30,256 nt of DNA from a virus. The DNA lies in IMG/VR virus record IMGVR_UViG_3300044786_000093. One strand, written 5' to 3'. The notes under the pieces were generated by a model. The model saw only the letters and a program-made list of their open reading frames with translations, was not told the DNA's origin and did no database searches. The position numbers and the translations under genes were made by a program. The stretch's first letter is position 1. Every line of letters starts with the position of its first letter. Below are positions 128-30,256 of the stretch, piece after piece.

Positions 128-274
128 CACACCGAAGTCTGACAAACTCTGCACGTTGTAGTGACCACAATCGCAGAACCAACCCGCACCCCCGGCCAAC
201 ACGTTGGCCGTCTTCTCGCACACTCCGCAGGTTTCACCCGTGAAGCCGTTGTAATTGGCCCAAGTATCAGCCAT
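1..274 (-). CDS. Small zinc-ribbon-like protein (91 aa). It is the last gene of the leftward operon, and its TAG stop spans the circular junction (pos 1 plus 30129-30128).
   Basis: Hand translation from ATG at 274: MADTWANYNGFTGETCGVCEKTANVLAGGAGWFCDCGHYN...GAGPPPDQVGGSRG. It has a CxxC...CxC motif. It is absent from the ORF track because the stop lies across the contig end. A G10 run (26-35) lies inside it. Confidence 0.6.
   Translation of the reverse strand, partial: MADTWANYNGFTGETCGVCEKTANVLAGGAGWFCDCGHYNVQSLSDFGVLHEQPDMGTLGSVIVEGHKLARVRVGAVGAGPPPDQVGGSRG
12..30. repeat. Hairpin element of the variant family (CCCCCGA-CCTGA-TCGGGGG).
   Basis: The same palindrome recurs at 733-753 and 9531-9551, with degenerate copies at 13878-13922 and a duplicate at 30141-30159. 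Confidence 0.7.
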
Positions 275-279
275 CTCAG

Positions 280-618
280 TTATTTCTGAAACAGTGTAGA
301 CTTCCATTTCGTTTGCTCTCCCATCACCGCCCGATGCTCATCGTCCAACACACCGCTCCGCGCCCCGCACACCGGGCACACAAGATCGCCCAGCACGAGC
401 GAGTAGACCATCTCGGCAGGCGCGCCGTACTTCCGCTCAGGGTGCAGACAGATCATCTTCACTTCCCCGCCCACCGCCGACATACTGCCAGGACAGCGTG
501 TGCCCCCACGACCGTGGCTCTCATAGCGCGGCGTGCGATCTTGCCCAAGCGTGGTCTCACGAACAGCCACACCGCAAACCGGACACAGCGAGAAGACCAC
601 AAGGTCCATCGCGCTCAT
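280..618 (-). CDS. Hypothetical double zinc-ribbon protein (112 aa, two CPVCG motifs).
   Basis: It lies in ORF 280..717(-). The ATG at 618 forms an ATGA overlap with the stop of the upstream gene (615-617). Sequence: MSAMDLVVFSLCPVCG...VCPVCGARS. Confidence 0.65.
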   Translation of the reverse strand: MSAMDLVVFSLCPVCGVAVRETTLGQDRTPRYESHGRGGTRCPGSMSAVGGEVKMICLHPERKYGAPAEMVYSLVLGDLVCPVCGARSGVLDDEHRAVMGEQTKWKSTLFQK

Positions 619-797
619 CGCCACGCGCCCGAGATCCCCGACGCCCACCACTCCCCCAGCGCCGCGATCACCACGACCAGCGCGTACCAAAGCAGCTCGC
701 GGTTGCGCCAAGCCCACCGACTGACCGACTTCGTCCCCGACCTAATCGGGGATCGGACTTCGGACTTACCGACTCCGGACTGACTGACCGCGCTCAT
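615..797 (-). CDS. Small membrane protein (60 aa, one hydrophobic helix LLWYALVVVIAALGEWW).
   Basis: It lies in ORF 615..830(-). The ATG at 797 forms an ATGA overlap with the stop of the upstream gene (794-796). Its N-terminus is encoded by the heptad repeats and a hairpin element. Confidence 0.55.
   Translation of the reverse strand: MSAVSQSGVGKSEVRSPIRSGTKSVSRWAWRNRELLWYALVVVIAALGEWWASGISGAWR
733..753. repeat. Hairpin element of the variant family (GTCCCCGA-CCTAA-TCGGGGAT).
   Basis: 7-bp palindromic stem. The reverse complement ATCCCCGATTAGGTCGGGGAC parallels the main family ATCCCCGCGCAGGCGGGGAC, with a C:G to A:T compensatory pair. Confidence 0.7.
754..788. repeat. Imperfect heptad repeats (cggactt cggactt accgact ccggact gactgac).
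   Basis: Read directly. Same repeat family as at 1071, 10474, 17845, 22023 and 25382. Confidence 0.7.
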
Positions 798-1120
798 GTC
801 CCCGACTCCTTCTCCGGCAGCTGCCACCAAAGCGGCCCCGCGATAGCAATCTGCCTGAGCCGCCCCCCATAAAGCGCCCTCTCCGCTTCGCCGATGGCCG
901 CTTCGATATAGGGAAACTTCTCACACCCATCGTGCTCAGTCAGATAGCGCATCACGGCCACGTACAGCGTCTCCAGCACCGCTCGATCAACGCTGGCGAA
1001 CACGCGCACATGCTCTCGGCCTTCTGCCTCCTGTGAACTGCCTTCTGCCTTCTGCGTACTGCCTTCTGGCGACTGACCGACTTCGAACTTCGGACTGACG
1101 ACTGACGACTGAGTCTTCAT
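794..1120 (-). CDS. Hypothetical protein (108 aa) with a repeat-encoded, low-complexity N-terminus.
   Basis: ORF track. The ATG at 1120 forms an ATGA overlap with the upstream stop (1117-1119). The N-terminal ~40 aa are encoded by heptads (1071-1112) and gccttctg tandem repeats (~1017-1070). Confidence 0.6.
   Translation of the reverse strand: MKTQSSVVSPKFEVGQSPEGSTQKAEGSSQEAEGREHVRVFASVDRAVLETLYVAVMRYLTEHDGCEKFPYIEAAIGEAERALYGGRLRQIAIAGPLWWQLPEKESGT
1071..1112. repeat. Six in-phase heptads (gactgac cgacttc gaacttc ggactga cgactga cgactga).
   Basis: Read directly. Exact 7-nt register. Confidence 0.8.
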
Positions 1121-1413
1121 GTCCCCACCGGCCTTCCACGCTTCACCTTCAAGCGCCCGTCCGCGCGCCCCGCTTCCGAGCGACGCCGCGCGATCTCCTG
1201 CTCAACGTCTTTCACCAGCACGCGCCCCTGCTTTTGCACGTTCGACTCGCGCTCGTCGCGCAGCCAGGTAAGACGCCCACGCAGACACAACTCGGCCAGC
1301 GCCCCCGCCGAAATCCCGATCCGCTTCGCTGCCTCGCTCATCGTATACACGTCGCGCTCCCCGGCCACGTCCACCGGCTTCCATTCCTGAAAGTGCTGCA
1401 ACATCTTCGGCAT
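1117..1413 (-). CDS. Helix-turn-helix DNA-binding protein (MerR/excisionase-like HTH). It is the first gene of the leftward operon and a candidate early regulator.
   Basis: ORF 1117..1428(-). The motif YTMSEAAKRIGISAGALAELCLRGRL resembles an HTH. GGAGGA (1418-1423) lies 4 nt before ATG 1413. GTG 1428 is an alternative start. Confidence 0.7.
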   Translation of the reverse strand: MPKMLQHFQEWKPVDVAGERDVYTMSEAAKRIGISAGALAELCLRGRLTWLRDERESNVQKQGRVLVKDVEQEIARRRSEAGRADGRLKVKRGRPVGT

Positions 1414-1430
1414 AGCGTCCTCCGCCACTC

Positions 1431-1499: not shown

Positions 1500-2060
1500 C
1501 GTAGCGTTTGTCTCGAGCCCGAAGTAGTCGGCCACCCCGACCTCTACGCCGCGAAGCGCGGCACGATCTCCTTTACGCCGCGAAGCGCGGCACGAGCAAA
1601 ACCTTCCGCGCGGAAAACCAAGAGCCGCGCGGCGGGGGGGTCGCGGCCCCCCCCGGCTTCGCTCCCCCACCCCTCCAATGGGGGGACAGTAGCGCCCCGC
1701 CCCCCCGCCAAGCTCCCCCTCCTGATGCGCGTGACCCATCGCAGACGACCCGCAGAGCAAAGGCGGCTACGCCACATTGAGAAGAGCGTGGCGTAGCCAA
1801 CGCGCAGGCCCACCAGCCCTTCCAACACACACGCACCAGTGACACCACCCGCAGAGCTCCCGCGCGCCGCGCGCGGGCGGGGGGCGACCCGACGCCCCCC
1901 AGATCAGACCTCCCCCTCGGGTCGCGGCTTTCAGCCGGCGCGCCGGACGGGGGAAGACCAAGTGCCCCCCGCCGGTACCGGGCGGCCCCCTGCCCGCCCG
2001 CGCGCCGTCCTCAGCCGCGGGCCACTCACCCCGGCCTGGGGGTTTACCATAGGCCGCCGC
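1500..2060. other. Hairpin-dense, C/A-rich (T-poor on +) non-coding block.
   Basis: Contents: direct repeat tacgccGCGAAGCgcggcacga x2 (1545-1594); ccgcgcgg-aaaaccaagag-ccgcgcgg; an 11-bp stem ggctacgccac/gtggcgtagcc (1763-1796); gggggcg-acccga-cgccccc; cggggg-aagaccaagtg-cccccg; gcGCGAAGCgcgc (2059-2069). All ORFs here are Arg/Gly/Pro-rich with no RBS. Confidence 0.6.
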
Positions 2061-2106
2061 GCGAAGCGCGCGCTGTTGTCTTTCATCTTGGGTTTTTTCT
2101 TTTCTT

Positions 2107-2140
2107 TAAAAGCAAGGCCCGGCTTTCCGGGTCTTTTTTG
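2107..2140 (+). terminator. Intrinsic terminator, possibly bidirectional.
   Basis: aaaagcaaGGCCCGGctttCCGGGTCtttttt: a 7-bp GC stem (2116-2122/2127-2133) and a T6 run (2134-2139), with an A-rich stretch upstream. Confidence 0.6.
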
Positions 2141-2989
2141 CCGGGTTTCGGGGTGGGCGGCGTGTGCTCTTTCGGGTGGGCCTGGCGTGTCTTTTGTGCT
2201 CTTTCGGGTGGTCAAACAACCGCTCTCTTGGGGTCTTGCGTTGGCTCTCTCTTTGTGTCATGCTGTCTCTGTTCGTTGGTTCTTCTTCCTGTTGTTGTTG
2301 CGCTCCGCTTCTTGCGGAGCCGGGTGGTCGCCGTGTTCGCTCCTTCTTCTCTCTCCGCTCCTGTTCTCGCTTTCGTCGGCCTGTGGGCCGTGTTCGCGCT
2401 GCTGTTGTGGGTGCGCCTGTGCCTGCGGCGCTGGGCGCTGCTGGCCGGTGGCGTGCCCGGCCTGGTGGCGGCGGGCGTCGCCGTCTCGTTCGTGCCGGGT
2501 GGTGTCGTGTTCCGCTGTTCGCCGCGCCGCGCTGTGCCGGTCGCCGCTCGGCTGCTGGCGCTCTGCCGCTTGCTCGGCGTGCCCGCCGCGGCGGTCTCGT
2601 TCCCGGCTTCCGCCGGTGGCGGTGTGTCCGTGTTCGCGGCGCCGTGGTTGGGTGCGTTGCTGTGCTGTCGCGCTTTCCGCTCGGCGCGGGCGGTGGGCTG
2701 TGGCGTCGTGTGGGGTGTGCTGTGAGGCCTGCTGTGTCTGTCTCTCCCGCCCTGTGCCTTGCGCGCGGCCTGCCCCGCGCCGCCCGCGCCGTGTTGCGCG
2801 GTCGCGCGCTCCTCGTCGGGCGTGGTGCGCTGTTGCGCGGCTTGCCCATCCCCGCGCGCGTGCTGGCGGCGCTGTCCTGCCCGGCGCTGGCGTCGTCCGC
2901 GCCCGGCGCTGTCCCGACCTGCGGGCGTGCCGGTTGCGTCTGCGGGCGGGTCTGCCCGTCCGCACAGCCCGCGCTGTTTGGGTTCGCGT
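2141..2989 (+). other. Adenine-depleted tract: 12 A in 849 nt on the + strand, and none in 2319-2724.
   Basis: Hand count of every line. A occurs only at 2214-2216, 2218-2219, 2260, 2318, 2725, 2848, 2917, 2964 and 2966. All six frames are open as a consequence. Confidence 0.9.
2324..2725 (+). CDS. Candidate adenine-free ORF A (133 aa). It is hydrophobic and Arg-rich, membrane-like, and built only from V, A, L, G, F, W, C, S, P and R.
   Basis: GTG 2324 follows the only GGAG in the tract (2316-2319). T counts in 2401-2520 are 17/4/9 at coordinates 0/1/2 mod 3, which equals codon positions 2/3/1 of this frame. Third positions are almost all G/C. It ends at the TGA formed with the lone A at 2725. 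Confidence 0.4.
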   Translation: MVAVFAPSSLSAPVLAFVGLWAVFALLLWVRLCLRRWALLAGGVPGLVAAGVAVSFVPGGVVFRCSPRRAVPVAARLLALCRLLGVPAAAVSFPASAGGGVSVFAAPWLGALLCCRAFRSARAVGCGVVWGVL

Positions 2990-2991
2990 AG
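2734..2991 (+). CDS. Candidate nearly adenine-free ORF B (85 aa, 4 A in the sense codons).
   Basis: GTG 2734 lies 6 nt after GAGG (2724-2727). T counts in 2761-3000 are 7/15/22 at coordinates 0/1/2 mod 3, which equals codon positions 3/1/2 of this frame, a +1 phase shift relative to ORF A. Stop is TAG 2989-2991. Confidence 0.35.
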   Translation: MSVSPALCLARGLPRAARAVLRGRALLVGRGALLRGLPIPARVLAALSCPALASSAPGAVPTCGRAGCVCGRVCPSAQPALFGFA

Positions 2992-3019
2992 CCCGTGCTC
3001 TGTTTTCGGAGGCTGTACT

Positions 3020-3442
3020 ATGAATCGGCTGACTGGCTCTGGCGGTGAGACGGTAAGCGCGGATGTGCGCGCGGCGATTGCCCGCGCCCACCGCGCCAAT
3101 TCCAAGACAAACCCAAACCCGACCCGCGTCGTCGCCATCGCTTCGCCGTCATCGCTCTATCCGCGAGAACTCTCGCCGCTCCAGTTCCAGGCCGCGCGCC
3201 ACCAGGCTGTCATGGCGCGTGTGAGGCGCTCGGCTCATGCGCCGTCCGGCGTGGTCGTCGTCGTTTCGTTCGGCGCGTTCGCAAACGCGGCAGCATTCGG
3301 GCGCGAACTGGCCGCAAACCGGCGCGTGGTTGTGCGCCGCTCCGAGGTCGGGTTCGACGTGACCGTGCCAGCATCGTGCACGCTGCGTTCTCTGCTGCGC
3401 GGCGCTGAGGCGACCACGTGGCAGGCGATTGAGAATTTCTAA
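3020..3442 (+). CDS. Hypothetical early protein (140 aa).
   Basis: GGAGG (3008-3012) lies 7 nt before ATG 3020. It is in frame with ORF 2759..3442, and normal composition resumes here. Confidence 0.75.
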   Translation: MNRLTGSGGETVSADVRAAIARAHRANSKTNPNPTRVVAIASPSSLYPRELSPLQFQAARHQAVMARVRRSAHAPSGVVVVVSFGAFANAAAFGRELAANRRVVVRRSEVGFDVTVPASCTLRSLLRGAEATTWQAIENF

Positions 3443-3690
3443 ATGGCTAATCCGGCCACTCTCTTACCCGGTCAGAGGCTTACGCTGTGGTGCGAGCAGC
3501 GGGCGCTGTGTGCCGATCAAGAGAAATGCCGCGAAGTGCAAACGAACCGGAGTTTTCAAAACCGGCACGCCGCCAGAAACTTTCGGGGTTTGCGCGCGAG
3601 GCGGCCTACAAATCACCGGGGAAACCCCAGAAGGCGACTGACTCGCTAGGCAATTATCCGCTGTCAACCGCCAACCATTACGGAGGACAC

Positions 3691-3954
3691 ATGAACCCAA
3701 CACAGAAACGCGCCACTACCCACACCGCGCCCATGTTCCCGACCGGCGACGACCTGCCCCTATTCAGTGGCACGCCCATGCGCGCCCAGGTGGAGGAGTT
3801 CAAACCGGAGGCCGTCGAGGAGCAGCCAACTCTCTTTACACTGCCCAGGCCAGAGATGCGCCCGCGCCGCCGACCCATTGCGGCTCCGCCCGCAACCGGC
3901 ATCCTGCTACCGATTCACGTCACTGCCGCCGCCGTCGCAGAGGCCGCACGCTGA
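3691..3954 (+). CDS. Hypothetical protein (87 aa).
   Basis: cGGAGGAcacATG RBS. The C-terminal part of ORF 3487..3954. Confidence 0.7.
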   Translation: MNPTQKRATTHTAPMFPTGDDLPLFSGTPMRAQVEEFKPEAVEEQPTLFTLPRPEMRPRRRPIAAPPATGILLPIHVTAAAVAEAAR

Positions 3955-4004
3955 GAGAAAGACAGCGGCGACACCTACTAGCAACATTCACACCGGAGGA
4001 CATC

Positions 4005-4310
4005 ATGCTCACCGATACCATCACCCCCACCCGCACCATCTCGCACGCGCTCGCGCTCGCGAGCGACGGCGGCTATGCTGCGCTGCACGAACTCGCCACG
4101 CTCACGCCGCTCAGCGCCGGCGACCTGTGCCTGCTGGCGACCGGCGCGAACCCGCGCATGAGCCAGGCCGGGATTGACCTGGCGCTGGCGCTGTATCATG
4201 AGCGCGAGGGCACGCACATCGGCGCGCATGGAGGCAGCGTTTGTGAGGTCTGCGATCTGGACGCCGTGAATGAGTACGCGCTGAAAATCCTGCTGGAGGC
4301 GCAGCGATGA
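4005..4310 (+). CDS. Hypothetical protein (101 aa).
   Basis: ccGGAGGAcatcATG RBS. ORF track. Confidence 0.75.
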   Translation: MLTDTITPTRTISHALALASDGGYAALHELATLTPLSAGDLCLLATGANPRMSQAGIDLALALYHEREGTHIGAHGGSVCEVCDLDAVNEYALKILLEAQR

Positions 4311-5989: not shown

Positions 5990-6450
5990 AATTTGTTCGC
6001 AGCCGGGCAGGCCAGGGCCGCGCAGCAAGCCACCGCCGAGGCAGGCCGGAGTATCTGCAGCGGTCGGCCTAGGTCCCGGAAAGAAAGCGGGATCGGCGCG
6101 CGGCGCGCTGGGCGGAAGGGCGCGGAGCGGACGGCGCGACTCCAGCCGCGCAACGCGGCTTGGGCCGCGCCGACGCCCGCGCAGAATTTGAAGATGCGCG
6201 CAAAGGACGCGCGTCGCAGGCCTGCCCCATCATGGGGATAAACTTATCACGTGAAGGCCCAGGGGCGCAGCGCCTGCGCTCCGGCGCGAAGCGTGCCGGG
6301 TGGGGGTGCGCTCCCCCCACAACCCCCCGCGCGGGAGACACCCCGCGACCCCGGCAGGGGAGCGAGCAAAGCCCCCTGCACCCCCACACCGAGACCGGCA
6401 ACAAGCCACCGCTCCGGGAGTCCGAAGTATCCGCAGCGGTCAACCGTCAA
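5990..6450. other. Hairpin-dense, T-poor non-coding block bounded by 44-nt imperfect direct repeats (6026-6069 and 6402-6445).
   Basis: The repeats share caagccaccgc...agtatcYgcagcggtc..cc (about 35/44 identical). Internal hairpins: gcgcg-caaagga-cgcgc, gcgcag-cgc-ctgcgc, ccggcGCGAAGCgtgccgg, ggggg-tgcgct-ccccc. No ORF has an RBS or a GC3 signature. Confidence 0.55.
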
Positions 6451-6478
6451 CCGCTTTCCAACCCGCCGAATCTCCCAC

Positions 6479-6507
6479 TTGACGCGCATCTAGACCGGGT
6501 GTATAAA
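6479..6507 (+). promoter_or_regulatory. Sigma70-type promoter (TTGACG-N17-TATAAA) giving a leaderless or near-leaderless mRNA.
   Basis: cacTTGACGcgcatctagaccgggtgTATAAAgaagccATG. The ATG (6514) begins 7 nt after the -10 hexamer and there is no SD. Confidence 0.65.
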
Positions 6508-6513
6508 GAAGCC

Positions 6514-6726
6514 ATGCCCAAACCCCAACCCCGCCCCGCCCCCTACATCTCCATCACCGAGGCCGCCGAGCGATCCGGCCTGACCCACCAGTGGATTCAC
6601 CAGCTCGTCGCCAAGGGCAAAGACGGCCCCTTCCCCGGCGCATGCCAACTCACCAAAGAGTCGAACTCGCCCTACCTGATCCCCGCCACCGAGTTCGAGG
6701 CGTGGCTGAGAGCGAGAGAGACGTGA
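6514..6726 (+). CDS. Excisionase/AlpA-type HTH DNA-binding protein (70 aa). Candidate Xis or lysogeny-switch regulator.
   Basis: YISITEAAERSGLTHQWIHQLV...IPATEFEAWL resembles excisionase-family HTH. It lies about 400 nt from the integrase. Confidence 0.65.
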   Translation: MPKPQPRPAPYISITEAAERSGLTHQWIHQLVAKGKDGPFPGACQLTKESNSPYLIPATEFEAWLRARET

Positions 6727-6989
6727 CCCCTAACATCTTCGCCACCTACTTCGCGGCCCAACTCTCCGGCCACCCGCCGAAGTGGCAGCCCGTGGACACG
6801 CTTTCCGTCCAATTCGAGTCCGGCAAGATCGTCGGACTCACCTACTACAGCAAACACTTTGAACTCTCGCCCGACATCGAGATCAAGGGCGTGGCCCGCG
6901 TCGCCTACGACCAGGCGACCAACACCATCTACTACTACGTCCCCAAAGAAGAAAAACGCGGCCAGCCCCCCCGCGAAGGCGGGGGCTGA
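6723..6989 (+). CDS. Hypothetical protein (88 aa).
   Basis: GTGA start/stop overlap with the upstream gene. In frame with ORF 6591..6989. The C-terminus is encoded by an element-like hairpin (6968-6985). Confidence 0.6.
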   Translation: MTPNIFATYFAAQLSGHPPKWQPVDTLSVQFESGKIVGLTYYSKHFELSPDIEIKGVARVAYDQATNTIYYYVPKEEKRGQPPREGGG

Positions 6990-7088
6990 CCGCGTCGTCG
7001 CACTACTCGGCCCTCCAGGCCGACCGCGCCCACATCCGCTAAGAGTGAGGGCAGCGGCCAGCACATTAAAAACCGAATAGCACGACAG

Positions 7089-7123
7089 TGAGCCGCCCAG
7101 GACTTGAACCCGGAACCAAGTGT
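7089..7123 (-). other. tRNA 3'-end-like segment (T-arm plus acceptor 3' strand). Candidate attP core.
   Basis: The minus strand reads ..ggttCCGGGTTCAAGTCCTGGGCGGCTCA: T-stem/loop GGTTCAAGTCC followed by a 7-nt acceptor strand. No complete cloverleaf lies upstream. It directly abuts the integrase stop codon. Confidence 0.6.
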
Positions 7124-8044
7124 TTAAGGCGCATGTGCCCCACCCAGCAGGTGCAGCACCGGCGAGTAGCGGTCAAACAGCGTCGCGTCCGCGCTCGCCA
7201 TCTGCGCCATCAGCCAACGCGTGTACTCCTCGACGTGCTGAAAGTCGTCCCAGCGGCCGAAGAACTGTAACATGCGCGTGGGGCAGTTTGCAAGAGTCAT
7301 CCCGCACGAGAACGCCCGCCGCCAGGCGTGCGGCGAGAACGCCTTGACCCCGGCGCGCCCGGCCGCCCGTCGGCACAGGCACTTCAGCCCGCCGCGCGTC
7401 AGAGCCTGCCCCCGCTCCGCACCAAAGCCCAGGCCGACGAAGAGCGTCTCCGCGCCCGCCGCCGCGACCTGCGGCCGCGCGCCCAGCCAGGCCGCCAGCG
7501 CCGCCGCGGTCGGCGCGCTGAAGAACCCAAACTTCGTCTGTCCCCCCTTCACGACCACGTCGAACACACGCCGCTCTAGATCCACGTCGCCGATCCGCAG
7601 CCGACAGACTTCCGAGGCGCGCAGGCCCGAGTCGTACAGCAGCATGAAAATGGCCGTGTCGCGTGCACCCGTGACCGTGCTCGTGTCGCACGCCGCCAGC
7701 ACCGCCAACACTTCTCCGGCCGAGAGCGTGCGCTGCACCCGGCGCGGCACGCGCGGATAGGGCAGCCCGCGCGCCGGGGACGAGTCCCCGAGCGACCACT
7801 TGAAGAAACTGCGCATCCCCGCGAGCGCGCGCCTGGTCGCCGAGGCCCCCACCCCCGCCGCCCGCCGCTCAGCCAGGTAGCGCGTCAGGTCCGCCGTCCG
7901 CCAATCGCCGAGGCCCACGACCGGCGGCGATTGCGCCGCACCCCATCGCACCAGTGCCCGCACGTCGAAGCCGTAGCCGACACACGTCTCCGGCGCGTGG
8001 CACAGGGCCAACCAGTTCAGCCAGTCCCCGATCAACTGCTCCAT
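7124..8044 (-). CDS. int: Tyrosine recombinase/integrase (306 aa).
   Basis: N-terminal SAM-like core-binding region. Catalytic signature GLRASE...KGG...HAWRRAF...GRW...Y(TRW). SD-like gggggagagaaagac precedes the ATG. Confidence 0.9.
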   Translation of the reverse strand: MEQLIGDWLNWLALCHAPETCVGYGFDVRALVRWGAAQSPPVVGLGDWRTADLTRYLAERRAAGVGASATRRALAGMRSFFKWSLGDSSPARGLPYPRVPRRVQRTLSAGEVLAVLAACDTSTVTGARDTAIFMLLYDSGLRASEVCRLRIGDVDLERRVFDVVVKGGQTKFGFFSAPTAAALAAWLGARPQVAAAGAETLFVGLGFGAERGQALTRGGLKCLCRRAAGRAGVKAFSPHAWRRAFSCGMTLANCPTRMLQFFGRWDDFQHVEEYTRWLMAQMASADATLFDRYSPVLHLLGGAHAP

Positions 8045-8062
8045 GTCTTTCTCTCCCCCGCT

Positions 8063-8103
8063 CCCCGCTTAAAAGGCGGGGCGCGGACTCAAAGAGTCCG
8101 CGC
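8063..8103. terminator. Two adjacent hairpins in the int upstream region.
   Basis: ccccgc-ttaaaag-gcgggg and gcgcggactc-aaa-gagtccgcgc (10-bp perfect stem). Confidence 0.45.
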
Positions 8104-8240
8104 CGCCTCCCCGGCGCGTGATCTCTGACGCTGGCGCACCGCCGACACCGGCGCGCCCGTCATCACACATCAGCACTTTAGCACGAAGGAGAAGTGAGCG
8201 GCCACATTTCAAATCAACTTCAAACTATCCATGTGTCCCA

Positions 8241-8322: not shown

Positions 8323-8679
8323 ATGAAGCCAATCACCATTCCGCGACCCAGGGAGAACCCTATGCCACTGCCCGCCCACGTCGTCATCGTCACAACCGGC
8401 GATCTCGACCTGTCAACCGAGCAGGGAGTCGAAACCTGCGTACGCCGCATGTGGGCTGTGCCGCTAGATAGGTCAATCCTTCTGGATTTCCTGTTGGGCT
8501 ATCAGCGCGGCGGCGACCACACCAGCGAGGAGCACCTTGAGCTTCACCGCTTGCAGGCGCTGCTCAATTCGCAACTGCGGCACAAGCGCTTCGACTTTCT
8601 GAGCAAGGGGTTGGCCGCAACGCTGTTTCGCCAAGCCGTGCGCGATCTGCCCAACATCGTGCGGAAAGCATCCGGCTAG
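8323..8679 (+). CDS. Hypothetical protein (118 aa).
   Basis: gAAGGAGaaaccATG RBS. The upstream part of ORF 8194..8679 reads through hairpins and is Arg-rich. Confidence 0.7.
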   Translation: MKPITIPRPRENPMPLPAHVVIVTTGDLDLSTEQGVETCVRRMWAVPLDRSILLDFLLGYQRGGDHTSEEHLELHRLQALLNSQLRHKRFDFLSKGLAATLFRQAVRDLPNIVRKASG

Positions 8680-8692
8680 AAGGAGAAGCGCC

Positions 8693-8962
8693 ATGCCACA
8701 ACACCCCGTGCACCACGTTCAATTCATCTCGAACATCCCCGACCTGCTCCGCGCCATCGCCGACGGCGGCGAACTCGTGATGACCCACGACGGCGAGGCG
8801 CGCGAGACCTGGCATGTCGCAAAGCCCGGCAAGCCCGACCGCCGCGTGCTCGCTTCCACCGCCCGCGCCGCCAAGCGCAAGGGCTACATCGTCCCCAGCG
8901 GCATACTCTACTGGCATCTCACCATCGCCGGTGAGCGCGCACGAGAGCGAGGCAAGACATGA
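8693..8962 (+). CDS. Hypothetical protein (89 aa).
   Basis: gAAGGAGaagcgccATG RBS. Confidence 0.75.
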   Translation: MPQHPVHHVQFISNIPDLLRAIADGGELVMTHDGEARETWHVAKPGKPDRRVLASTARAAKRKGYIVPSGILYWHLTIAGERARERGKT

Positions 8963-9165
8963 AACTCTGCGATCTCTGCTACCGCCGCCGCGCCGCCAAA
9001 CGCTTCACGCTCCGCCCGCGCAATTCGACCACGTGCCGCTGCGACCGGCCCGCCTGCGCCGTGGACACGCGCTACGTCGCACATGCCGAGGTCATCCCCA
9101 TGCTGCCCGAAGACCCTTCGACCGTTCGACTAGCTCACGGCTCAGGAGAGACGCCCGATGAATAA
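8959..9165 (+). CDS. Hypothetical Cys-rich protein (68 aa).
   Basis: ATGA overlap with the upstream gene. CDLC...CRCDRPAC. Confidence 0.65.
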   Translation: MKLCDLCYRRRAAKRFTLRPRNSTTCRCDRPACAVDTRYVAHAEVIPMLPEDPSTVRLAHGSGETPDE

Positions 9166-12263: not shown

Positions 12264-12488
12264 ATGCTCGACGGCGGCGCGGGCCGCCCGACGCTCACCC
12301 TCCAACTCGTGCGCGCCTACCAGCACCCGTCCGAGATCGAGTGGGCCACCGTCGTGCGCGCGCTCCCCTATTCGTTGACACCCACCACCTTCCGCCCGCG
12401 CGCCGCGACCGGGGCCAACAGCCGACACGTCCTGTGGGGCACCACGAAGGTCGACGTGCAGGCAAAACTCTTCAATGAAACTCCTTGA
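12264..12488 (+). CDS. Hypothetical protein (74 aa). Possibly the downstream part of an interrupted or read-through gene that starts at 12117.
   Basis: ORF track. No convincing RBS (GGGAGG is 15 nt upstream). Confidence 0.45.
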   Translation: MLDGGAGRPTLTLQLVRAYQHPSEIEWATVVRALPYSLTPTTFRPRAATGANSRHVLWGTTKVDVQAKLFNETP

Positions 12489-13134
12489 TCTCTTCTGCGG
12501 CGCAGGCGGGGCGGCGATGGGCTACCACCGCGCGGGCTTCGACGTGATCGTGGGCGTGGACACCAAACCGCAGCCGCATTACCCGTTCGAGTTCGTGCAG
12601 GCCGACGCGCTCGAATTCTGCGCGGCGCACGGGCGCGAGTTCGACGCCGTCCACGCGTCACCGCCGTGCCACCACTACAGCACTGGCACACAACACAGGA
12701 AAAACCGGGGCATCGTGTACCCTGCCTTAATCGAGCCGACGCAAGCGCTTTTGCTTGAGATAGGACTGCCTTACATCATTGAGAATGTGCCCGGCGCAAA
12801 AAACGACTTGCGAAAACCCGTCATGCTCTGCGGCAGTATGTTCGGGTTAGGCGTGATGCGGCACCGGCTATTTGAGACGAACTGGCCGCTCCCCGTGCCT
12901 GCCCATGCCTGCAACGGCAACGACATTGATCGGGATGCTCTATCGGTGACGCGGCATGGCCCGCCTGCACGCTGGTATCGCAACCACCCAGACAAAACGT
13001 TCAATATCAAGACGTGGCACGCTGCGATGGGCATAGATTGGATGACACGCAGCGAGTTGACCCAAGCCGTCCCGCCCGCCTACACGGAGTACATCGGCGC
13101 GCAACTGCTCGCCGCCGTCCGAGGCGCGAGATGA
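12475..13134 (+). CDS. DNA (cytosine-5) methyltransferase, compact phage type (219 aa).
   Basis: Motif I DLFCGAGG, motif IV SPPCHHYS (catalytic PC), motif VI IIENVPG, RHRLF, motif X TQAVPPAY. Confidence 0.85.
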   Translation: MKLLDLFCGAGGAAMGYHRAGFDVIVGVDTKPQPHYPFEFVQADALEFCAAHGREFDAVHASPPCHHYSTGTQHRKNRGIVYPALIEPTQALLLEIGLPYIIENVPGAKNDLRKPVMLCGSMFGLGVMRHRLFETNWPLPVPAHACNGNDIDRDALSVTRHGPPARWYRNHPDKTFNIKTWHAAMGIDWMTRSELTQAVPPAYTEYIGAQLLAAVRGAR

Positions 13135-14722: not shown

Positions 14723-16282
14723 ATGGACCCATCCTTATTCGCCCAGGCCAAGGAAGCCGCCAAGAAATGGCTGACCCGCATCAGCGGCTTCTCGCGCCTC
14801 GTCATCCACCGGCCCCTCTACCGCTACCAGCTCGCGCCCGCCTGGGCCATCGTGGACTCAGTGCTCCGCAAGCGCGGGCGCGAGTTCGCAATCATGTTCC
14901 CGCGCCAGTCGGGGAAGAACGAGACCCAGGCGCAGATCGAGGCTTACTTGCTCAATCTCTTCCAACTCGTGCCGCAGGCGCAGATCGTCAAGGCCTCGCC
15001 GACCTTCAAGCCGCAGAGCATCAACGCGATGCTGCGGCTCGAGGCCGCGCTGCGCAACGACTGGAACAAGAACGAGATGCGCAAGCGCGAGGGCTACATC
15101 TTCCAACTCGGCCAGGCGACGATCACTTTCTTCTCCGCCGAGCCGCAGGCCCAGGCCGTGGGCGCATCGGCAACGCTCCTACTGGAGGGCGACGAGGCCC
15201 AGGACATCAGCGAGACGCAGTGGGGGTTGAAGTTCGAGCCGATGATGGCCTCCACCAACGCCACCATGGCCCTGTGGGGCACGGCCTGGACTTCCAAAAC
15301 ATTGCTCGCCCGCACGATCAAGCGCCTGCGCGCGCTCGAAGCGCAGGACGGAGTCAAACGAGTGTTCGTCGTCACGCCTGAGCAGGTCGCCCGCGAGAAC
15401 CCGGCCTACGGCGTGTTCGTCGAGCGCCAGGTCGCAAAGCATGGCCGCCAGCATCCGCTCGTGCGCACGCAGTATTTCAACGAGGAGATCGACGCCGAGG
15501 GCGGGATGTTCCCGCCCACCCGCCGCGCACTCATGCAGGGATCGCACCCGCGCCAGAAAGCCCCCCGCCCCAGCGCGATCTATGCCTTCCTATTGGATGT
15601 CGCCGGCGAGGACGAGGGCGCGACCGGCGACCGCGTCGTCGTGGATCGCGCCGAGCTGGCCAACCCGGAGCGCGACGCCGCGTCGCTCACCATCGTCGAG
15701 ATAGACCTGTCCACGCTCTCCGACCCGCTCATCGCCAAACCCACCTACCGCGCCATCCAGCGCGAGCTGTGGGTCGGCACGAAGCACACCGCGCTCTATG
15801 GCAAACTCCGCGCGCTCATCCACCTGTGGAAGCCGCGCTACATCGCCGCCGACGCGACCGGAGTCGGCGCAGGCATCACCAGCTTCCTAGACACCGCCTT
15901 CCCCGGCCGCGTGCTCCCGTTCGTGTTCAACAGCGCGACCAAATCGCGGCTCGGCTGGGATTTCCTGAGCATCGTCGAAACCGGCCGCTGGCAGGATTGG
16001 GCTGTCCCGGAGGACGGGGCCGATCCAGACTCAGAGACATTCTGGCGCGAACTGGAGGCCGTGCAGTACGAGGCCGGTCTAAACCAGACGCTCCGGTGGG
16101 GCGTGCCCCCCAACACGCGCGCTGATGATCCCCGCGCAGGCGGGGACCGGATCGTCCACGACGACACCGTTCTTTCCGCCGCCCTCTGCGCCGTGCTCGA
16201 CGAACAGGAGTGGTTCGTCGGCGGCCCGACGCTCGTCGTGCGAGGCCGCGACCCGCTCGAGGAGATCGACCGTGGCCGCTAA
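14723..16282 (+). CDS. terL: Terminase large subunit (519 aa).
   Basis: Walker A-like FPRQSGKNET, Walker B-like LLLEGDEAQD, and a C-terminal nuclease-like region (AADATGVGAG...). It lies directly before the portal gene. Contains element copy 7. Confidence 0.85.
   Translation: MDPSLFAQAKEAAKKWLTRISGFSRLVIHRPLYRYQLAPAWAIVDSVLRKRGREFAIMFPRQSGKNETQAQIEAYLLNLFQLVPQAQIVKASPTFKPQSINAMLRLEAALRNDWNKNEMRKREGYIFQLGQATITFFSAEPQAQAVGASATLLLEGDEAQDISETQWGLKFEPMMASTNATMALWGTAWTSKTLLARTIKRLRALEAQDGVKRVFVVTPEQVARENPAYGVFVERQVAKHGRQHPLVRTQYFNEEIDAEGGMFPPTRRALMQGSHPRQKAPRPSAIYAFLLDVAGEDEGATGDRVVVDRAELANPERDAASLTIVEIDLSTLSDPLIAKPTYRAIQRELWVGTKHTALYGKLRALIHLWKPRYIAADATGVGAGITSFLDTAFPGRVLPFVFNSATKSRLGWDFLSIVETGRWQDWAVPEDGADPDSETFWRELEAVQYEAGLNQTLRWGVPPNTRADDPRAGGDRIVHDDTVLSAALCAVLDEQEWFVGGPTLVVRGRDPLEEIDRGR
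16128..16147 (+). repeat. Palindromic hairpin element, copy 7 (ATCCCCGCGCAGGCGGGGAC), in frame in terL (DPRAGGD).
   Basis: Exact 20-mer. Confidence 0.9.
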
Positions 16283-17858
16283 AAGGATTCGGGTAGCCAC
16301 AAAGAGAGTCAAGGGGCGCGCCGCACGCTCCGATTTCGCCCACGCAAAATCGCAGGCCCCGCGATTCACCGCCGCGCAGATGAAAGCCGAAGTCGCCCGC
16401 CAGGTGCAGCTGAGCGTGTCGAAGCTCGCCGTGCGCGAGACCGACGACACCTTCATCCTCGGCGCGCGCCAGGCGTCTCAACAGAACTGGCGCGACCGCT
16501 ACGACTACGACCGCGAAAAGATTTTGCTCGACGCGCTGCTCGTGTGGCGCTCCAACCCGCTCGCGCGCCGCATCGTCGAGCTGACCAGCCAGTACGTCGT
16601 CGGCGGAGGCCTGGTCCCCATCTGCAAGCACCCCGAGACCGCCAAATTCCTGACGAAGTTTTGGGACCACAGACTCAATCGCATGGAGACGCGCTGTATC
16701 GAGTGGTGCGACGAACTGACCCGCTCCGGCGAACTCTTCATCTTGATCGCCACCGACCCCGGCGGCCAGTCCTACGCGCGCGCCGTCGCCGCCGCCGACA
16801 TCGAGGCGATCACCCCATCCGCCAACGACATCGAGCAGGCCGTTTCCTTCCAGCCCAAGCTCAGCGTCGACGCCCTGAGCCTGTCGAAGGGCGACCCCGC
16901 GCCTTACATCGCCTACGACGAGCAGAACGACGAGCCGGACAGCCAGGGCAAGTGGCAGCCGCGCATGGTCCAGTACGCCGTCAACCGCCCCGTGGGCGGG
17001 CAGCACGGCGAGAGCGACCTGGGGCCGCTGCTCCGCTGGCTCACGCGCTACGACGGCTGGCTCGAAGACAGAGTCCGGCTCAACCGCTACCGGCAAGCCT
17101 TCATGTATATCCTCACCGGCACGTGGGAAAACGAGACCGCGCGAAAGAAAAAGCAGGCCGAAATCAACGCCGACCCGCCCCCGCCCGGCTCGACTCTGGT
17201 GACAGACAAGTCCGAAACTTGGGGCGTGCTCAACCCGCAGCTCGCCAGCTTCGAAGCGGGCGAAGACGGTCTGGCGATCAAGAAACACATTGCCACCGGC
17301 GCCGGCATCCCACTTCACTTCGTCGCCGAACCGGAGGGCGAGACGCGCACGACCGCCGCCGCCTCGGGCAGCCCCACCTTCCGCCACTACGAGCAGCGCC
17401 AGCTCTACTTCCTATCGTTCGTCAAAGACATTCTCAACATCGTCCGCCGCCGCGGCATCGAAGCCAAACGGCGTCTCTCCACCACCGCCGACATCGTCAT
17501 GCGCGGCGGTGACATCTCCGGGCGCGACAATGCCGCGCTCGCGCTCGCCGCTTCGCAGATCGTCGCTTCGTTCGCCGTGATCCGCGACCGGGGGTTGATC
17601 GACGACGCGGAACTGCTGCGCCTGTCCTATCGTTTCGCAGGCGAGCTCGTAGATGTGGAGGAGATGCTGGAACGCGGCCGGCAAGCGCCAATGCCTCGCA
17701 TCCTGCCCAAGGCCGGAGCCGCCGCGCCGCCCGGAGGCAACAAGAAGAAGGTCAAGCCCACCGATCCGCTCGTGGACGCCGACGTCGAGAAGCCGCAGGG
17801 CGACGCCGCGCTCAGCGCCGTGCAACGCCGCAACGGTCAGCTGACGACTGACGACTGA
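16272..17858 (+). CDS. Portal protein (about 528 aa).
   Basis: Follows TerL. Size and the motif ...LLVWRSNPLARRIVELTSQYVVGGG... are portal-like. GAGGAG lies 7-9 nt before GTG 16272. ATG 16380 is an alternative start. Confidence 0.75.
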   Translation: MAAKRIRVATKRVKGRAARSDFAHAKSQAPRFTAAQMKAEVARQVQLSVSKLAVRETDDTFILGARQASQQNWRDRYDYDREKILLDALLVWRSNPLARRIVELTSQYVVGGGLVPICKHPETAKFLTKFWDHRLNRMETRCIEWCDELTRSGELFILIATDPGGQSYARAVAAADIEAITPSANDIEQAVSFQPKLSVDALSLSKGDPAPYIAYDEQNDEPDSQGKWQPRMVQYAVNRPVGGQHGESDLGPLLRWLTRYDGWLEDRVRLNRYRQAFMYILTGTWENETARKKKQAEINADPPPPGSTLVTDKSETWGVLNPQLASFEAGEDGLAIKKHIATGAGIPLHFVAEPEGETRTTAAASGSPTFRHYEQRQLYFLSFVKDILNIVRRRGIEAKRRLSTTADIVMRGGDISGRDNAALALAASQIVASFAVIRDRGLIDDAELLRLSYRFAGELVDVEEMLERGRQAPMPRILPKAGAAAPPGGNKKKVKPTDPLVDADVEKPQGDAALSAVQRRNGQLTTDD

Positions 17859-17875: not shown

Positions 17876-18235
17876 ATGACCGCTCCCCACGTCACCCGCT
17901 TCCGCAAGGCGCTCGCCGGTTCTTTCTTCCGCGTAGGCTACTACAGCGGCGGCGGCGCGGGCACCGTCGACCCGGAAAAGTTCTGCGTACAGTATCAGAA
18001 GAACCCCACCGCGCCCACGCAGCCCAGCGCGCCCACGCAGCCCAGCGCGCCGACCGGGGCCACACCCGCGACGCCGCCCGCGATGGCGGCCTGCGGCAGC
18101 GCGGCGGGCATACGCAACCCGCCCGTTCCACCAGGCGGCGCACCCAACCCGCCCGCTCCCACCCAGCCACCGCGACCGGCACCGGAGCCGCCACCCGAAG
18201 GGACACCGACACCGCCCACTGGAGGCACACCATGA
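17876..18235 (+). CDS. Pro-rich low-complexity protein (119 aa) with an APTQPS tandem repeat.
   Basis: Heptad-derived SD. ATGA overlap with the capsid gene. Confidence 0.55.
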   Translation: MTAPHVTRFRKALAGSFFRVGYYSGGGAGTVDPEKFCVQYQKNPTAPTQPSAPTQPSAPTGATPATPPAMAACGSAAGIRNPPVPPGGAPNPPAPTQPPRPAPEPPPEGTPTPPTGGTP

Positions 18236-30127: not shown

Positions 30128-30256
30128 CTACCCCCGACTGCCCCCGACCTGATCGGGGGGGGGGCCAGCGCCTACCGCCCCCACGCGCACCCGCGCCAGC
30201 TTGTGCCCTTCAACGATCACGCTTCCCAGCGTGCCCATGTCGGGCTGCTCATGCAG
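30128..30256 (-). CDS. 3' portion of the same zinc-ribbon gene annotated at 1-274, seen again because of the end overlap. It includes the complete TAG stop (30130-30128).
   Basis: 30130-30256 duplicates 1-127. Reading the minus strand across 30130/30129/30128 gives TAG. Confidence 0.6.
   Translation of the reverse strand: MHEQPDMGTLGSVIVEGHKLARVRVGAVGAGPPPDQVGGSRG
30130..30256. repeat. Terminal direct repeat, the partner of 1-127.
   Basis: Exact identity, read base by base. Confidence 0.95.

Follow-up and report, generated by a model that had tools for sequence, protein, structure and literature searches.

A stretch of almost 0.9 kb, well supported as the beginning of the rightward lytic early operon of a temperate phage, is written almost entirely without adenine (A) on its sense strand. 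It lies in IMG/VR virus record IMGVR_UViG_3300044786_000093, whose 30,256 nucleotides were analysed as a whole and are referred to as the window. The tract (2116–3009; Table 1) contains 1.5% A compared with 19.1% elsewhere in the window (binomial P=1.3e-62), which corresponds to 13 A where approximately 171 would be expected. It comprises a regulated, predicted sigma-70-type promoter, a leader and two small open reading frames (ORFs), ORF1 and ORF2. Comparison of five lineages likewise gives good support, at the level of sequence, to the conclusion that, through sustained selection, the sense strand has lost A wherever A can be spared.

Within the tract, 406 consecutive nucleotides (2319–2724) lack A altogether, whereas the longest A-free run elsewhere in the window spans 46 nt, and no comparable depletion of any other base is found anywhere in the genome. 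The GC skew reverses from -0.14 in the genome to +0.06 in the tract. An initial annotation, made from the window's letters, had already described the 406-nt run and had counted twelve A in 2141–2989 (2214–2216, 2218–2219, 2260, 2318, 2725, 2848, 2917, 2964 and 2966); both were reproduced, and the depletion itself holds, but the limits given at that time, 2141–2991, fall slightly short of its true extent. An assembly or sequencing artefact, named beforehand as a possible cause, is ruled out, as contigs assembled from other samples (Logan SRR35361855 and SRR35362108; JGI 3300044774) contain exactly the same sequence and four diverged lineages share the property. A contrasting case is found at 17996–18219, where T-free runs of 88 and 62 nt lie within ORF 17876–18235; this is an ordinary compositional effect, because the ORF encodes a low-complexity linker rich in Pro, Thr, Ala and Gln (PTQPSAPTQPSAPT...).

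The four diverged relatives, L004/L005, L006, L032 and L155, originate from other projects, and each has a tract in the corresponding position that is just as poor in A; all five tract-bearing lineages come from metagenomes and form a small clade of temperate phages. The setting is the same in each of them and consists of a divergent repressor-like gene, a GC-rich spacer, the tract and early genes of normal composition. The A content of the tracts ranges from 1.5 to 2.9%, compared with 19–20% outside (P between 1e-29 and 1e-62). L007, a more distant relative, possesses neither ORF1 nor ORF2 and also has no such tract: a 94-nt A-free run is its longest feature of this kind, and a classical TTGACA-17-TACAAT promoter precedes ordinary genes. 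Thus, the A-poor property travels with the module. In L010, a further relative, a moderately A-poor gene (1302–1844) just upstream of the homologue of the gene family g169 contains 7–15 A per 100 nt compared with around 25 elsewhere; it is not purged but may show the same bias in weaker form.

Selection on the nucleotide itself is seen best at sites that can vary without changing the protein. In eight ORFs of four lineages, comprising 810 codons, A occupies codon positions 1, 2 and 3 in 11, 19 and 6 cases, respectively, while the corresponding frequencies in ordinary phage genes are 22%, 26% and 7%. At four-fold degenerate sites, 5 of 668 nucleotides are A (0.7%), compared with 6.3% in ordinary genes (P=2e-13). 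Base usage at these sites is G 0.47, C 0.37, T 0.15 and A 0.007 in the tract ORFs, and C 0.60, G 0.30, A 0.063 and T 0.044 in ordinary genes. The 5' untranslated regions (UTRs) and the spacers between the ORFs are depleted as strongly as the coding parts. Synonymous sites are near saturation between lineages, with synonymous divergence (dS) of about 0.7–1.3, and where a sporadic A occurs in one lineage, the others most often have G. Since the A-free state has been held through divergence to synonymous saturation, it reflects continuing selection against A rather than chance or common ancestry. Amino-acid composition as the sole cause is ruled out, because synonymous and non-coding sites are purged as well; rather, the purge of A restricts both proteins almost completely to the ten amino acids that can be encoded without A. 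Only 34 of the 810 codons contain A, and Lys, Asp, Glu and Tyr are essentially absent.

Table 1. Coordinates of the adenine-depleted tract, its component features, its counterparts in related lineages and other genes of the window (positions refer to the window unless a lineage is named).
Feature	Position	Strand	Description
Adenine-depleted tract, window	2116–3009	+	894 nt: 13 A, 297 C, 337 G, 247 T (T-depleted on the - strand)
Left boundary	2114–2146		GC hairpin (AGGCCCGG-CUUU-CCGGGUCU), then T6 on the + strand
Two perfect 17-nt direct repeats, TGTGCTCTTTCGGGTGG	2163–2179, 2195–2211	+	upstream of the predicted promoter
Predicted sigma-70-type early promoter	2236–2264	+	-35 TTGCGT (2236–2241), 17-nt spacer, TG (2256–2257), -10 CATGCT (2259–2264)
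5'-leader hairpin	2302–2320	+	GCUCCGC-UUCUU-GCGGAGC; 3' arm holds GGAG (2316–2319) upstream of ORF1
ORF1 (predicted)	2324–2725	+	GTG start, 133 codons, TGA stop; no A in sense codons
ORF2 (predicted)	2734–2991	+	GTG start 6 nt after GAGG (2724–2727), 85 codons with 4 A, TAG stop
A2318	2318	+	in GGAG before ORF1, 3' arm of leader hairpin
A2725	2725	+	in ORF1 TGA stop and part of GAGG before ORF2
A2848	2848	+	in Ile codon ATC
A2917	2917	+	in Thr codon ACC
A2964	2964	+	in Ala codon GCA
A2966	2966	+	in Gln codon CAG; Gln invariant in all five ORF2 copies
A2990	2990	+	in ORF2 TAG stop
Right boundary	3008–3442	+	GGAGG (3008–3012); next early gene, ATG at 3020, 140 aa, normal A content
Tract in L004/L005 (ENA and JGI)	226–1032		A 19/807; found by ORF1 homology
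Tract in L006 (JGI)	8414–9134		A 17/721; found via conserved downstream gene
Tract in L032 (IMG/VR)	7463–6650	-	A 15/814; found via conserved 17-nt leader motif
Tract in L155 (ENA)	3625–4112		A 14/488; found via the same downstream gene family
Helix-turn-helix (repressor-like) gene	1117–1428	-	divergent; first of five leftward genes
Leftward near-consensus promoter	1458–1431	-	TTGACA-16-TATGAT; drives the leftward genes
Excisionase-like helix-turn-helix protein	6232–6726		just upstream of the integrase gene
Tyrosine integrase	7124–8044	-	lies amid the rightward early genes, in antisense orientation; marks a temperate phage
Large terminase	14723–16282		tailed-phage gene
Portal	16125–17858		tailed-phage gene
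Protease-capsid fusion	18232–20325		tailed-phage gene

Coding capacity of the tract

The initial annotation had proposed two nearly A-free genes on the + strand, one of 133 codons without A and one of 85 codons with four A. Homologues in the related lineages bear this out, and ORF1 and ORF2 are predicted to be real protein-coding genes on the basis of a period-3 signal, a frame switch at the stop-start junction, insertions and deletions in multiples of three and ratios of non-synonymous to synonymous substitution rates (dN/dS) of 0.12–0.49. A period-3 signal is present in both ORFs and absent from 2141–2323, and the phasing of T recorded earlier is exact (17/4/9 in 2401–2520 and 7/15/22 in 2761–3000). 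In ORF1, the GC content at codon positions 1, 2 and 3 (GC1/2/3) is 0.76/0.61/0.83 and T is distributed 32/52/22 (chi-square p=1e-4); the corresponding values for ORF2 are 0.78/0.71/0.87 and 17/24/10 (p=0.03). The codon phase shifts exactly at the conserved TGA...GAGG...GTG junction, and the size of this shift differs between L006 and the other lineages. The homologues keep the A-poverty as well as the junction, and the translation signals listed in the initial annotation were found where it had placed them, including the stop codons at 2723–2725 and 2989–2991. Non-coding frames give dN/dS values of at least 1, except for the antisense frame that shares the wobble position and is inseparable by dN/dS. 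Coding on the + strand is favoured because the phase shift sits at the junction, because no T is available there for a start or stop codon on the - strand and because the order GC1>GC2 is found in + strand frames only.

ORF2 is the predicted conserved core of the module. Its product is a small, basic, Arg/Cys-rich protein of 85–96 aa with about ten Arg across copies and the motif LSCPxLAS...CGxxxCxC...Q..LF, and it shares 76%, 70% and 58% identity with its counterparts in L006, L032 and L155, respectively. Differences fall most heavily on third codon positions (18/10/45), and dN/dS is 0.12–0.27 at dS 0.7–1.3 and 0.36–0.49 in comparison with L155. The overall range of 0.12–0.49 covers the four alignable copies; the fifth, in L005, is recognisable mainly by the shared C-terminus.

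ORF1 is more variable. A hydrophobic protein of 133–136 aa is encoded in the window and L005, a hydrophobic protein of 77 aa in L006 and a non-hydrophobic protein of 117 aa in L032, while ORF1 is absent in L155. At the sequence level, the family is limited to the window and L005 lineages among around 15 billion predicted proteins. The two sequences (the homologue is P0002/L005) are 65–68% identical and differ by indels of 18 and 6 nt and at 38/30/52 sites by codon position; dN/dS is 0.23–0.47, with 0.44 overall and 0.23 in the best-conserved block. The ORF1 product is hydrophobic and contains Arg, and Kyte-Doolittle windows of up to 2.36 suggest that it is probably a membrane protein. The earlier description of both products as hydrophobic and membrane-like therefore holds for ORF1, as judged by the Kyte-Doolittle index, and fails for ORF2, which is a basic, Cys-containing small protein. 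In L155, the ribosome binding site region AGGTGCCCT(G/A)TG occurs twice, at 3800–3818 before ORF2 and at 4101–4116 before the next gene, and in the window the start region of ORF1 (cttgcggagccgggtg) is similar to that of ORF2 (gctgtgaggcctgctgtg). These similarities hint that ORF1 may have been gained or lost through recombination between such start-region repeats.

Neither protein has a family match in Pfam, PHROGs, PADLOC or NCBIfam. An ORF1 profile yielded no match beyond the one known homologue among 1.84 billion representatives, an ORF2 profile found only itself in a set of 5.8 billion, and searches for ORF1 in GTDB genomes returned nothing. AlphaFold models of the two proteins reached a predicted local distance difference test score (pLDDT) of about 52–54, which is too low, and were discarded. 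Furthermore, neither blastn with 1500–3600 nor tblastn with ORF2 matched any of 50,697 phage records, and scans of IMG/VR for related loci, which used the helix-turn-helix protein, ORF1, the 140-aa neighbour and the g169 family as queries, retrieved nothing.

Promoter, leader and boundaries of the tract

In a five-lineage alignment, the canonical promoter of L155, TTGACA-17-TACAAT, aligns with the predicted promoter of the window. The other lineages have TTGCTT or TTGTGT as -35 hexamer and TACTCT, CATACT or TACACT as -10 hexamer, and the A at position 2 (A2260 in the window) and the T at position 6 (T2264) of the latter are invariant in all five. The initial annotation had located the tract next to the early promoters; the promoter in fact lies inside it. 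Transcription is predicted to start near G2271, and the resulting transcript segment (2271–3009, 739 nt) contains seven A. The 17-nt direct repeats upstream of the promoter are candidate binding sites for a regulator. Other repeats, which look like operators, are found at the corresponding place in relatives, namely GTCA boxes in L006 and L032 and two copies of CAGTTTCGCGTTTCT in L155, one in the promoter spacer and one at around +30.

The leader hairpin has a consensus fold of seven pairs. All four ORF1-bearing lineages preserve the pairing, and the only changes in it are wobble-preserving. The leader motif CTCYGCTTCTTGCGGRG retrieved L032, while a scan of GTDB genomes with the 17-nt motif gave chance matches only. 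The hairpin is the only conserved structure: Rfam gave no match, and the fold of the tract compared with shuffled sequences has a z-score of -1.26, so that global RNA structure is not supported as the cause of the depletion.

The seven A of the predicted transcript (Table 1) show what is retained. The initial annotation had noticed that the rare A fall where translation signals need them; this is borne out and is extended by A2260, the invariant A of the -10 hexamer. The sporadic A of the relatives are found in the -10 hexamer, in the operator-like repeats, in stop codons with a single A and mostly in CAG or ACC codons. A seems to be kept only where it is indispensable.

The right edge of the tract coincides in every lineage with the end of ORF2 and the ribosome binding site of the next normal gene, where the A count per 50 nt rises from 0–1 to 7–12 (7–11 in the window); a homologue of the 140-aa gene follows the tract in L006. 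The left boundary lies 57–120 nt upstream of the -35 element across lineages, and 17 of the 467 nt between both (3.6%; five lineages summed, hand tally) are A. In the window, the hairpin at this boundary is terminator-like on both strands (-14 to -15 kcal/mol), and a terminator scan listed the - strand version; it shows no clear conservation in relatives. Every tract begins on its left side with a short box that is rich in A, ends in AAAG and is followed by G/C (L006 8395–8417; L005 214–232; window 2104–2119; L155 3610–3628), and this box could mark a start site. A promoter in the AT-rich left-boundary box was rejected, as no hexamer pair is conserved there. The L006 box, TCACTAAAGGG, is identical over 11 nt to the core of the T3 RNA polymerase promoter; as the phage has no gene for a phage-type RNA polymerase, this likeness is probably a coincidence.

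Why adenine may have been lost

We tentatively favour an explanation, to which we give somewhat less than an even chance, in which every A carried by the earliest lytic transcript would be harmful at the level of RNA. It is favoured because the depletion ends sharply at a gene boundary and is stronger within the predicted transcript, which nearly lacks the target nucleotide. Many toxin RNases require A-containing sites, and an RNA composed of G, C and U only would offer almost no substrate for adenine-dependent attack. Such attack could come from A-requiring mRNA interferases and abortive-infection RNases (ACA-type MazF, ToxN types and HigB/RelE with A-rich sites), from HEPN RNases with adenosine specificity, for example Csx1, or from CmdT, which ADP-ribosylates adenine. 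The first product, ORF2 above all, would still be made in a stressed or defending cell, and the downstream genes of normal composition would be expressed afterwards. An engineered transcript without ACA keeps being translated under MazF (PMC5408214, review), CmdT ADP-ribosylates the N6 of adenine in GA dinucleotides of single-stranded mRNA (PMC11618068), and Csx1 has been described as adenosine-specific (PMC4712672).

The ACA-less mRNAs are the closest parallel, since an RNA without the RNase motif stays translatable while other mRNAs are destroyed (PMC5408214). There, however, a single 3-nt motif is missing, mostly by design, whereas a whole nucleotide is missing here over around 0.9 kb of natural sequence, the promoter region and UTRs are included, the proteins are confined to ten amino acids and no cognate RNase is known. 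It is tempting to speculate that the module serves counter-defence, with an A-less pioneer lytic transcript that would escape cutting, editing and ADP-ribosylation by adenine-dependent host immunity and stress RNases; we consider this more specific version possible but rather unlikely. ATP-free transcription as a strict requirement was rejected, as the first A lies around 48 nt into the predicted transcript, at the Shine-Dalgarno sequence.

Several observations weigh against a liability of A in RNA. The depletion reaches upstream of the predicted promoter, where it remains strong, although the transcript is depleted further. Resistance to A-dependent RNases or modification, on which the initial annotation had speculated, is plausible but by itself leaves the A-poverty of this upstream DNA unaccounted for. 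The -35 hexamers and the 'UP-like' segments, which consist of T-runs, are A-free in four lineages, and this suggests that the promoter DNA, too, is written without A where possible. A model that invokes RNA only would need an additional start site further upstream, and no convincing one was found; the start site assumed here is itself a prediction. The shift from C to G and T at four-fold degenerate sites is not predicted by avoidance of A alone. Moreover, protection would be limited to the first one or two genes, without explanation, and no A-dependent RNase or modifier was detected in the scanned phage ORFs, which comprised ORF1, ORF2 and eight neighbouring genes for PADLOC and around 45 ORFs for Pfam, NCBIfam and PHROGs.

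An unlikely but serious rival, serious because the depletion covers DNA upstream of the promoter, is a strand-specific constraint on the DNA: from the promoter region through the first genes, the sense strand would have to lack A or, equivalently, the template strand T. In one version, the template would be free of thymine-directed blocks such as ultraviolet-induced dimers after SOS induction or the ADP-ribosyl-thymidine left by DarT-type enzymes. In another, the tract would be a 'promoter desert', in which neither strand can form a -10 element (A and T are needed on either strand), an AUG, a canonical Shine-Dalgarno sequence or a stop codon, which would insulate the lytic switch from unregulated expression. 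The A-avoiding -35 elements of four lineages (TTGCGT, TTGCTT or TTGTGT) and the upstream T-runs in place of A-runs fit such a constraint, as does the temperate lifestyle indicated by the integrase and the repressor-like neighbour, to which both a tightly controlled first lytic gene and its expression following DNA damage are relevant. However, the depletion is approximately four times stronger in the predicted transcript than upstream, and the canonical L155 promoter contains A in both hexamers, which indicates that promoter DNA is not strictly A-free. A protected template of 0.9 kb would leave the other early genes unprotected, GC-rich DNA seldom forms spurious promoters, which makes a total purge seem excessive for insulation, and the phage yielded no gene for a modification of thymine or adenine.

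Avoidance of restriction sites is a related case at the DNA level. The first-step-transfer region of T5 has no EcoRI sites, and the EcoP15I sites of T7 are found in one orientation; in these phages, too, a purge is local or strand-biased, and host defence drives it. A strand free of A also lacks every palindrome that contains A/T; GC-only palindromes, in contrast, are plentiful in the tract (24 GCGC, 18 CGCG and 13 CCGG), and this candidate is not supported. With the terminase gene 11.7 kb downstream in a circular assembly, nothing here predicts a position of the tract at a genome end, and a purge confined to one place would leave the remaining genome unprotected.

It is improbable that the constraint acts on translation, such that A-containing codons are avoided and only tRNAs for Phe, Leu, Ser, Cys, Trp, Pro, Arg, Val, Ala and Gly are needed. 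Anticodon nucleases include PrrC, RloC, PARIS and retron-type effectors, and synthesis would remain possible while such enzymes cut tRNA-Lys, -Tyr, -Asn, -Glu and similar. The scarcity of A-containing codons and the virtual absence of Lys, Asp, Glu and Tyr are what this explanation predicts; on the other hand, third positions are A-free without need (5/668), the 5'UTRs, inter-ORF spacers and promoter-upstream DNA are depleted too, and initiation still requires tRNA-fMet.

We also assign a low probability to a mutational origin, in which a local, strand-specific process removes A and only strongly selected A survive; enzymatic deamination of A in a displaced strand or a retroelement-like, adenine-specific copying error would be candidates. 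The sporadic A sites, most often G in other lineages, fit such a process, and four-fold degenerate sites gain T and lose C, which is the direction of same-strand deamination. Against this, the edges are sharp and lie at the gene boundary in all five lineages, the gain of G (+0.17) far exceeds the loss of A (-0.06), and spontaneous deamination should deplete C, which is still at 33%, much faster than A. In addition, the scanned ORFs contain no reverse transcriptase or deaminase domain, and no pair of template and variable repeats was found. Diversity-generating retroelements need a reverse transcriptase and randomise A in a variable repeat of around 100 nt from a template repeat. Adenine is the only base affected there as well, but in the tract it is lost rather than diversified, and the possibility that the tract is the target of such an element was rejected, given the missing reverse transcriptase domain and matching repeat pair.

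A function of the - strand, whether as an antisense RNA lacking U or as a gene that lacks T and encodes a hydrophilic protein of low complexity, is very improbable: although all six frames are open, the wobble-sharing antisense frame gives the same dN/dS (0.25, 0.45), third-position usage (C>G>A>T) would match the normal codon bias of the phage and the left boundary of the window reads as a - strand terminator, this boundary is not conserved, no conserved - strand promoter was seen, the product would contain no hydrophobic residue, and the junction with its L006-specific phase shift and the GC1>GC2 order fit the + strand only. Neither an R-loop-prone strand, which had been suggested as an alternative, nor a G-rich strand prone to G-quadruplexes is supported, as the GC skew is just +0.06 and the tract has three runs of at least four G and no G-quadruplex motif.

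A further natural parallel is provided by the signal-sequence coding regions of vertebrate secretory mRNAs, which are A-poor (PMC2100149). Here, too, a natural coding segment contains less A than hydrophobic residues would require, and the feature acts at the RNA level. These regions are, however, eukaryotic, linked to nuclear export, around 60–100 nt long and depleted in relative terms only, whereas the tracts described here belong to bacterial viruses, span 490–894 nt and are purged almost totally, including non-coding DNA. The initial annotation knew of no described class of A-free genes, and literature searches on adenine-free, adenine-less or adenine-depleted sequences likewise yielded no phage or bacterial precedent. 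Because none of the systems compared removes a whole base from nearly 1 kb that includes functional genes, we rate the tract as categorically new as a sequence phenomenon, with five metagenomic lineages so far.

If selection can strip a working promoter-leader-gene module of one base and keep it so, some force in the cell acts on single adenines in the RNA or thymines in the template, and it must be stronger than codon bias and than the cost of giving up half of the amino acids. Its identification would point to a conflict between phage and host of a new kind or to a so far unrecognised need in the control of the lytic switch. ORF1 and ORF2 would also represent natural, conserved polypeptides of about ten amino acids with Arg as the sole charged residue, and are of relevance for the design of reduced-alphabet proteins. 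The signature, a run of at least 200 nt lacking one base, is trivial to scan for, and a metagenome-wide survey is therefore feasible.

Genome organization and the divergent control region

The window is well supported as the complete genome of a temperate phage of around 30.1 kb. Its first 127 bp are repeated exactly and in direct orientation at its end (1–127 and 30130–30256), and this terminal overlap indicates a whole, circularly closed assembly with a genome of approximately 30.13 kb. Cultured relatives of the terminase and the capsid protein are all below 32% identity and give no clue to the host, and Rfam and tRNA scans were empty. Enzymes that modify adenine or thymine were not seen in the genome; ORF 12475–13134 encodes a C-5 cytosine DNA methyltransferase-like protein (N-terminal part of Pfam PF00145; PHROG 363, E=6e-38). 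The integrase gene is arranged in the same way in L155, where it lies at 6238–7098 on the - strand.

Nearly all genes are directed rightward from 3020, and five small genes are directed leftward from 1428. The helix-turn-helix, repressor-like gene that heads the latter is kept beside the tract in L006, L032 and L155. The early operons of lambdoid phages, PR-cro and PL-nutL-N, have leaders of ordinary base composition. The module resembles them in its divergent repressor-like gene, operator-flanked early promoter, leader hairpin and small basic first gene; the likeness is one of position and architecture, as there is no match in sequence or family and lambdoid leaders are compositionally ordinary.

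The 1.6 kb between the divergent gene sets consist of a GC-rich spacer with hairpin repeats (around 1500–2115) and the A-depleted tract. At the left end of this interval, a divergent control region has a conserved core, CCGGTAATTGTCAAG...GGATCAGG, at 1431–1500 in the window, 7925–7975 in L006 and 8290–8250 (- strand) in L032. Read leftward, TTGACA belongs to the strong promoter at 1458–1431; read rightward, the same bases give TTGTCA. Inverted repeats follow the core (GGAGATA...TATCTCA in the window and GGATCA...TGATCC in L006), and the region could hold a second, rightward promoter or an operator upstream of the tract.

The spacer of around 0.6 kb is densely filled with GC mini-hairpins, each with a short A-containing loop at its centre (window 1541–1595 and 2058–2072). 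GCGAAGC is an unusually stable DNA mini-hairpin motif. In the window, the spacer contains two 26-nt direct repeats, CCTYTACGCCGCGAAGCGCGGCACGA, and in addition GCGCGCGAAGCGCGCGC. Three or four tandem units of around 65 nt with GGCGAAGCGCC are found in L006 (around 7985–8230), and GCGGAGTACCGC and CGCGAGTACGCG are repeated in L032 (around 7640–8110, - strand) and L004 (130–200).

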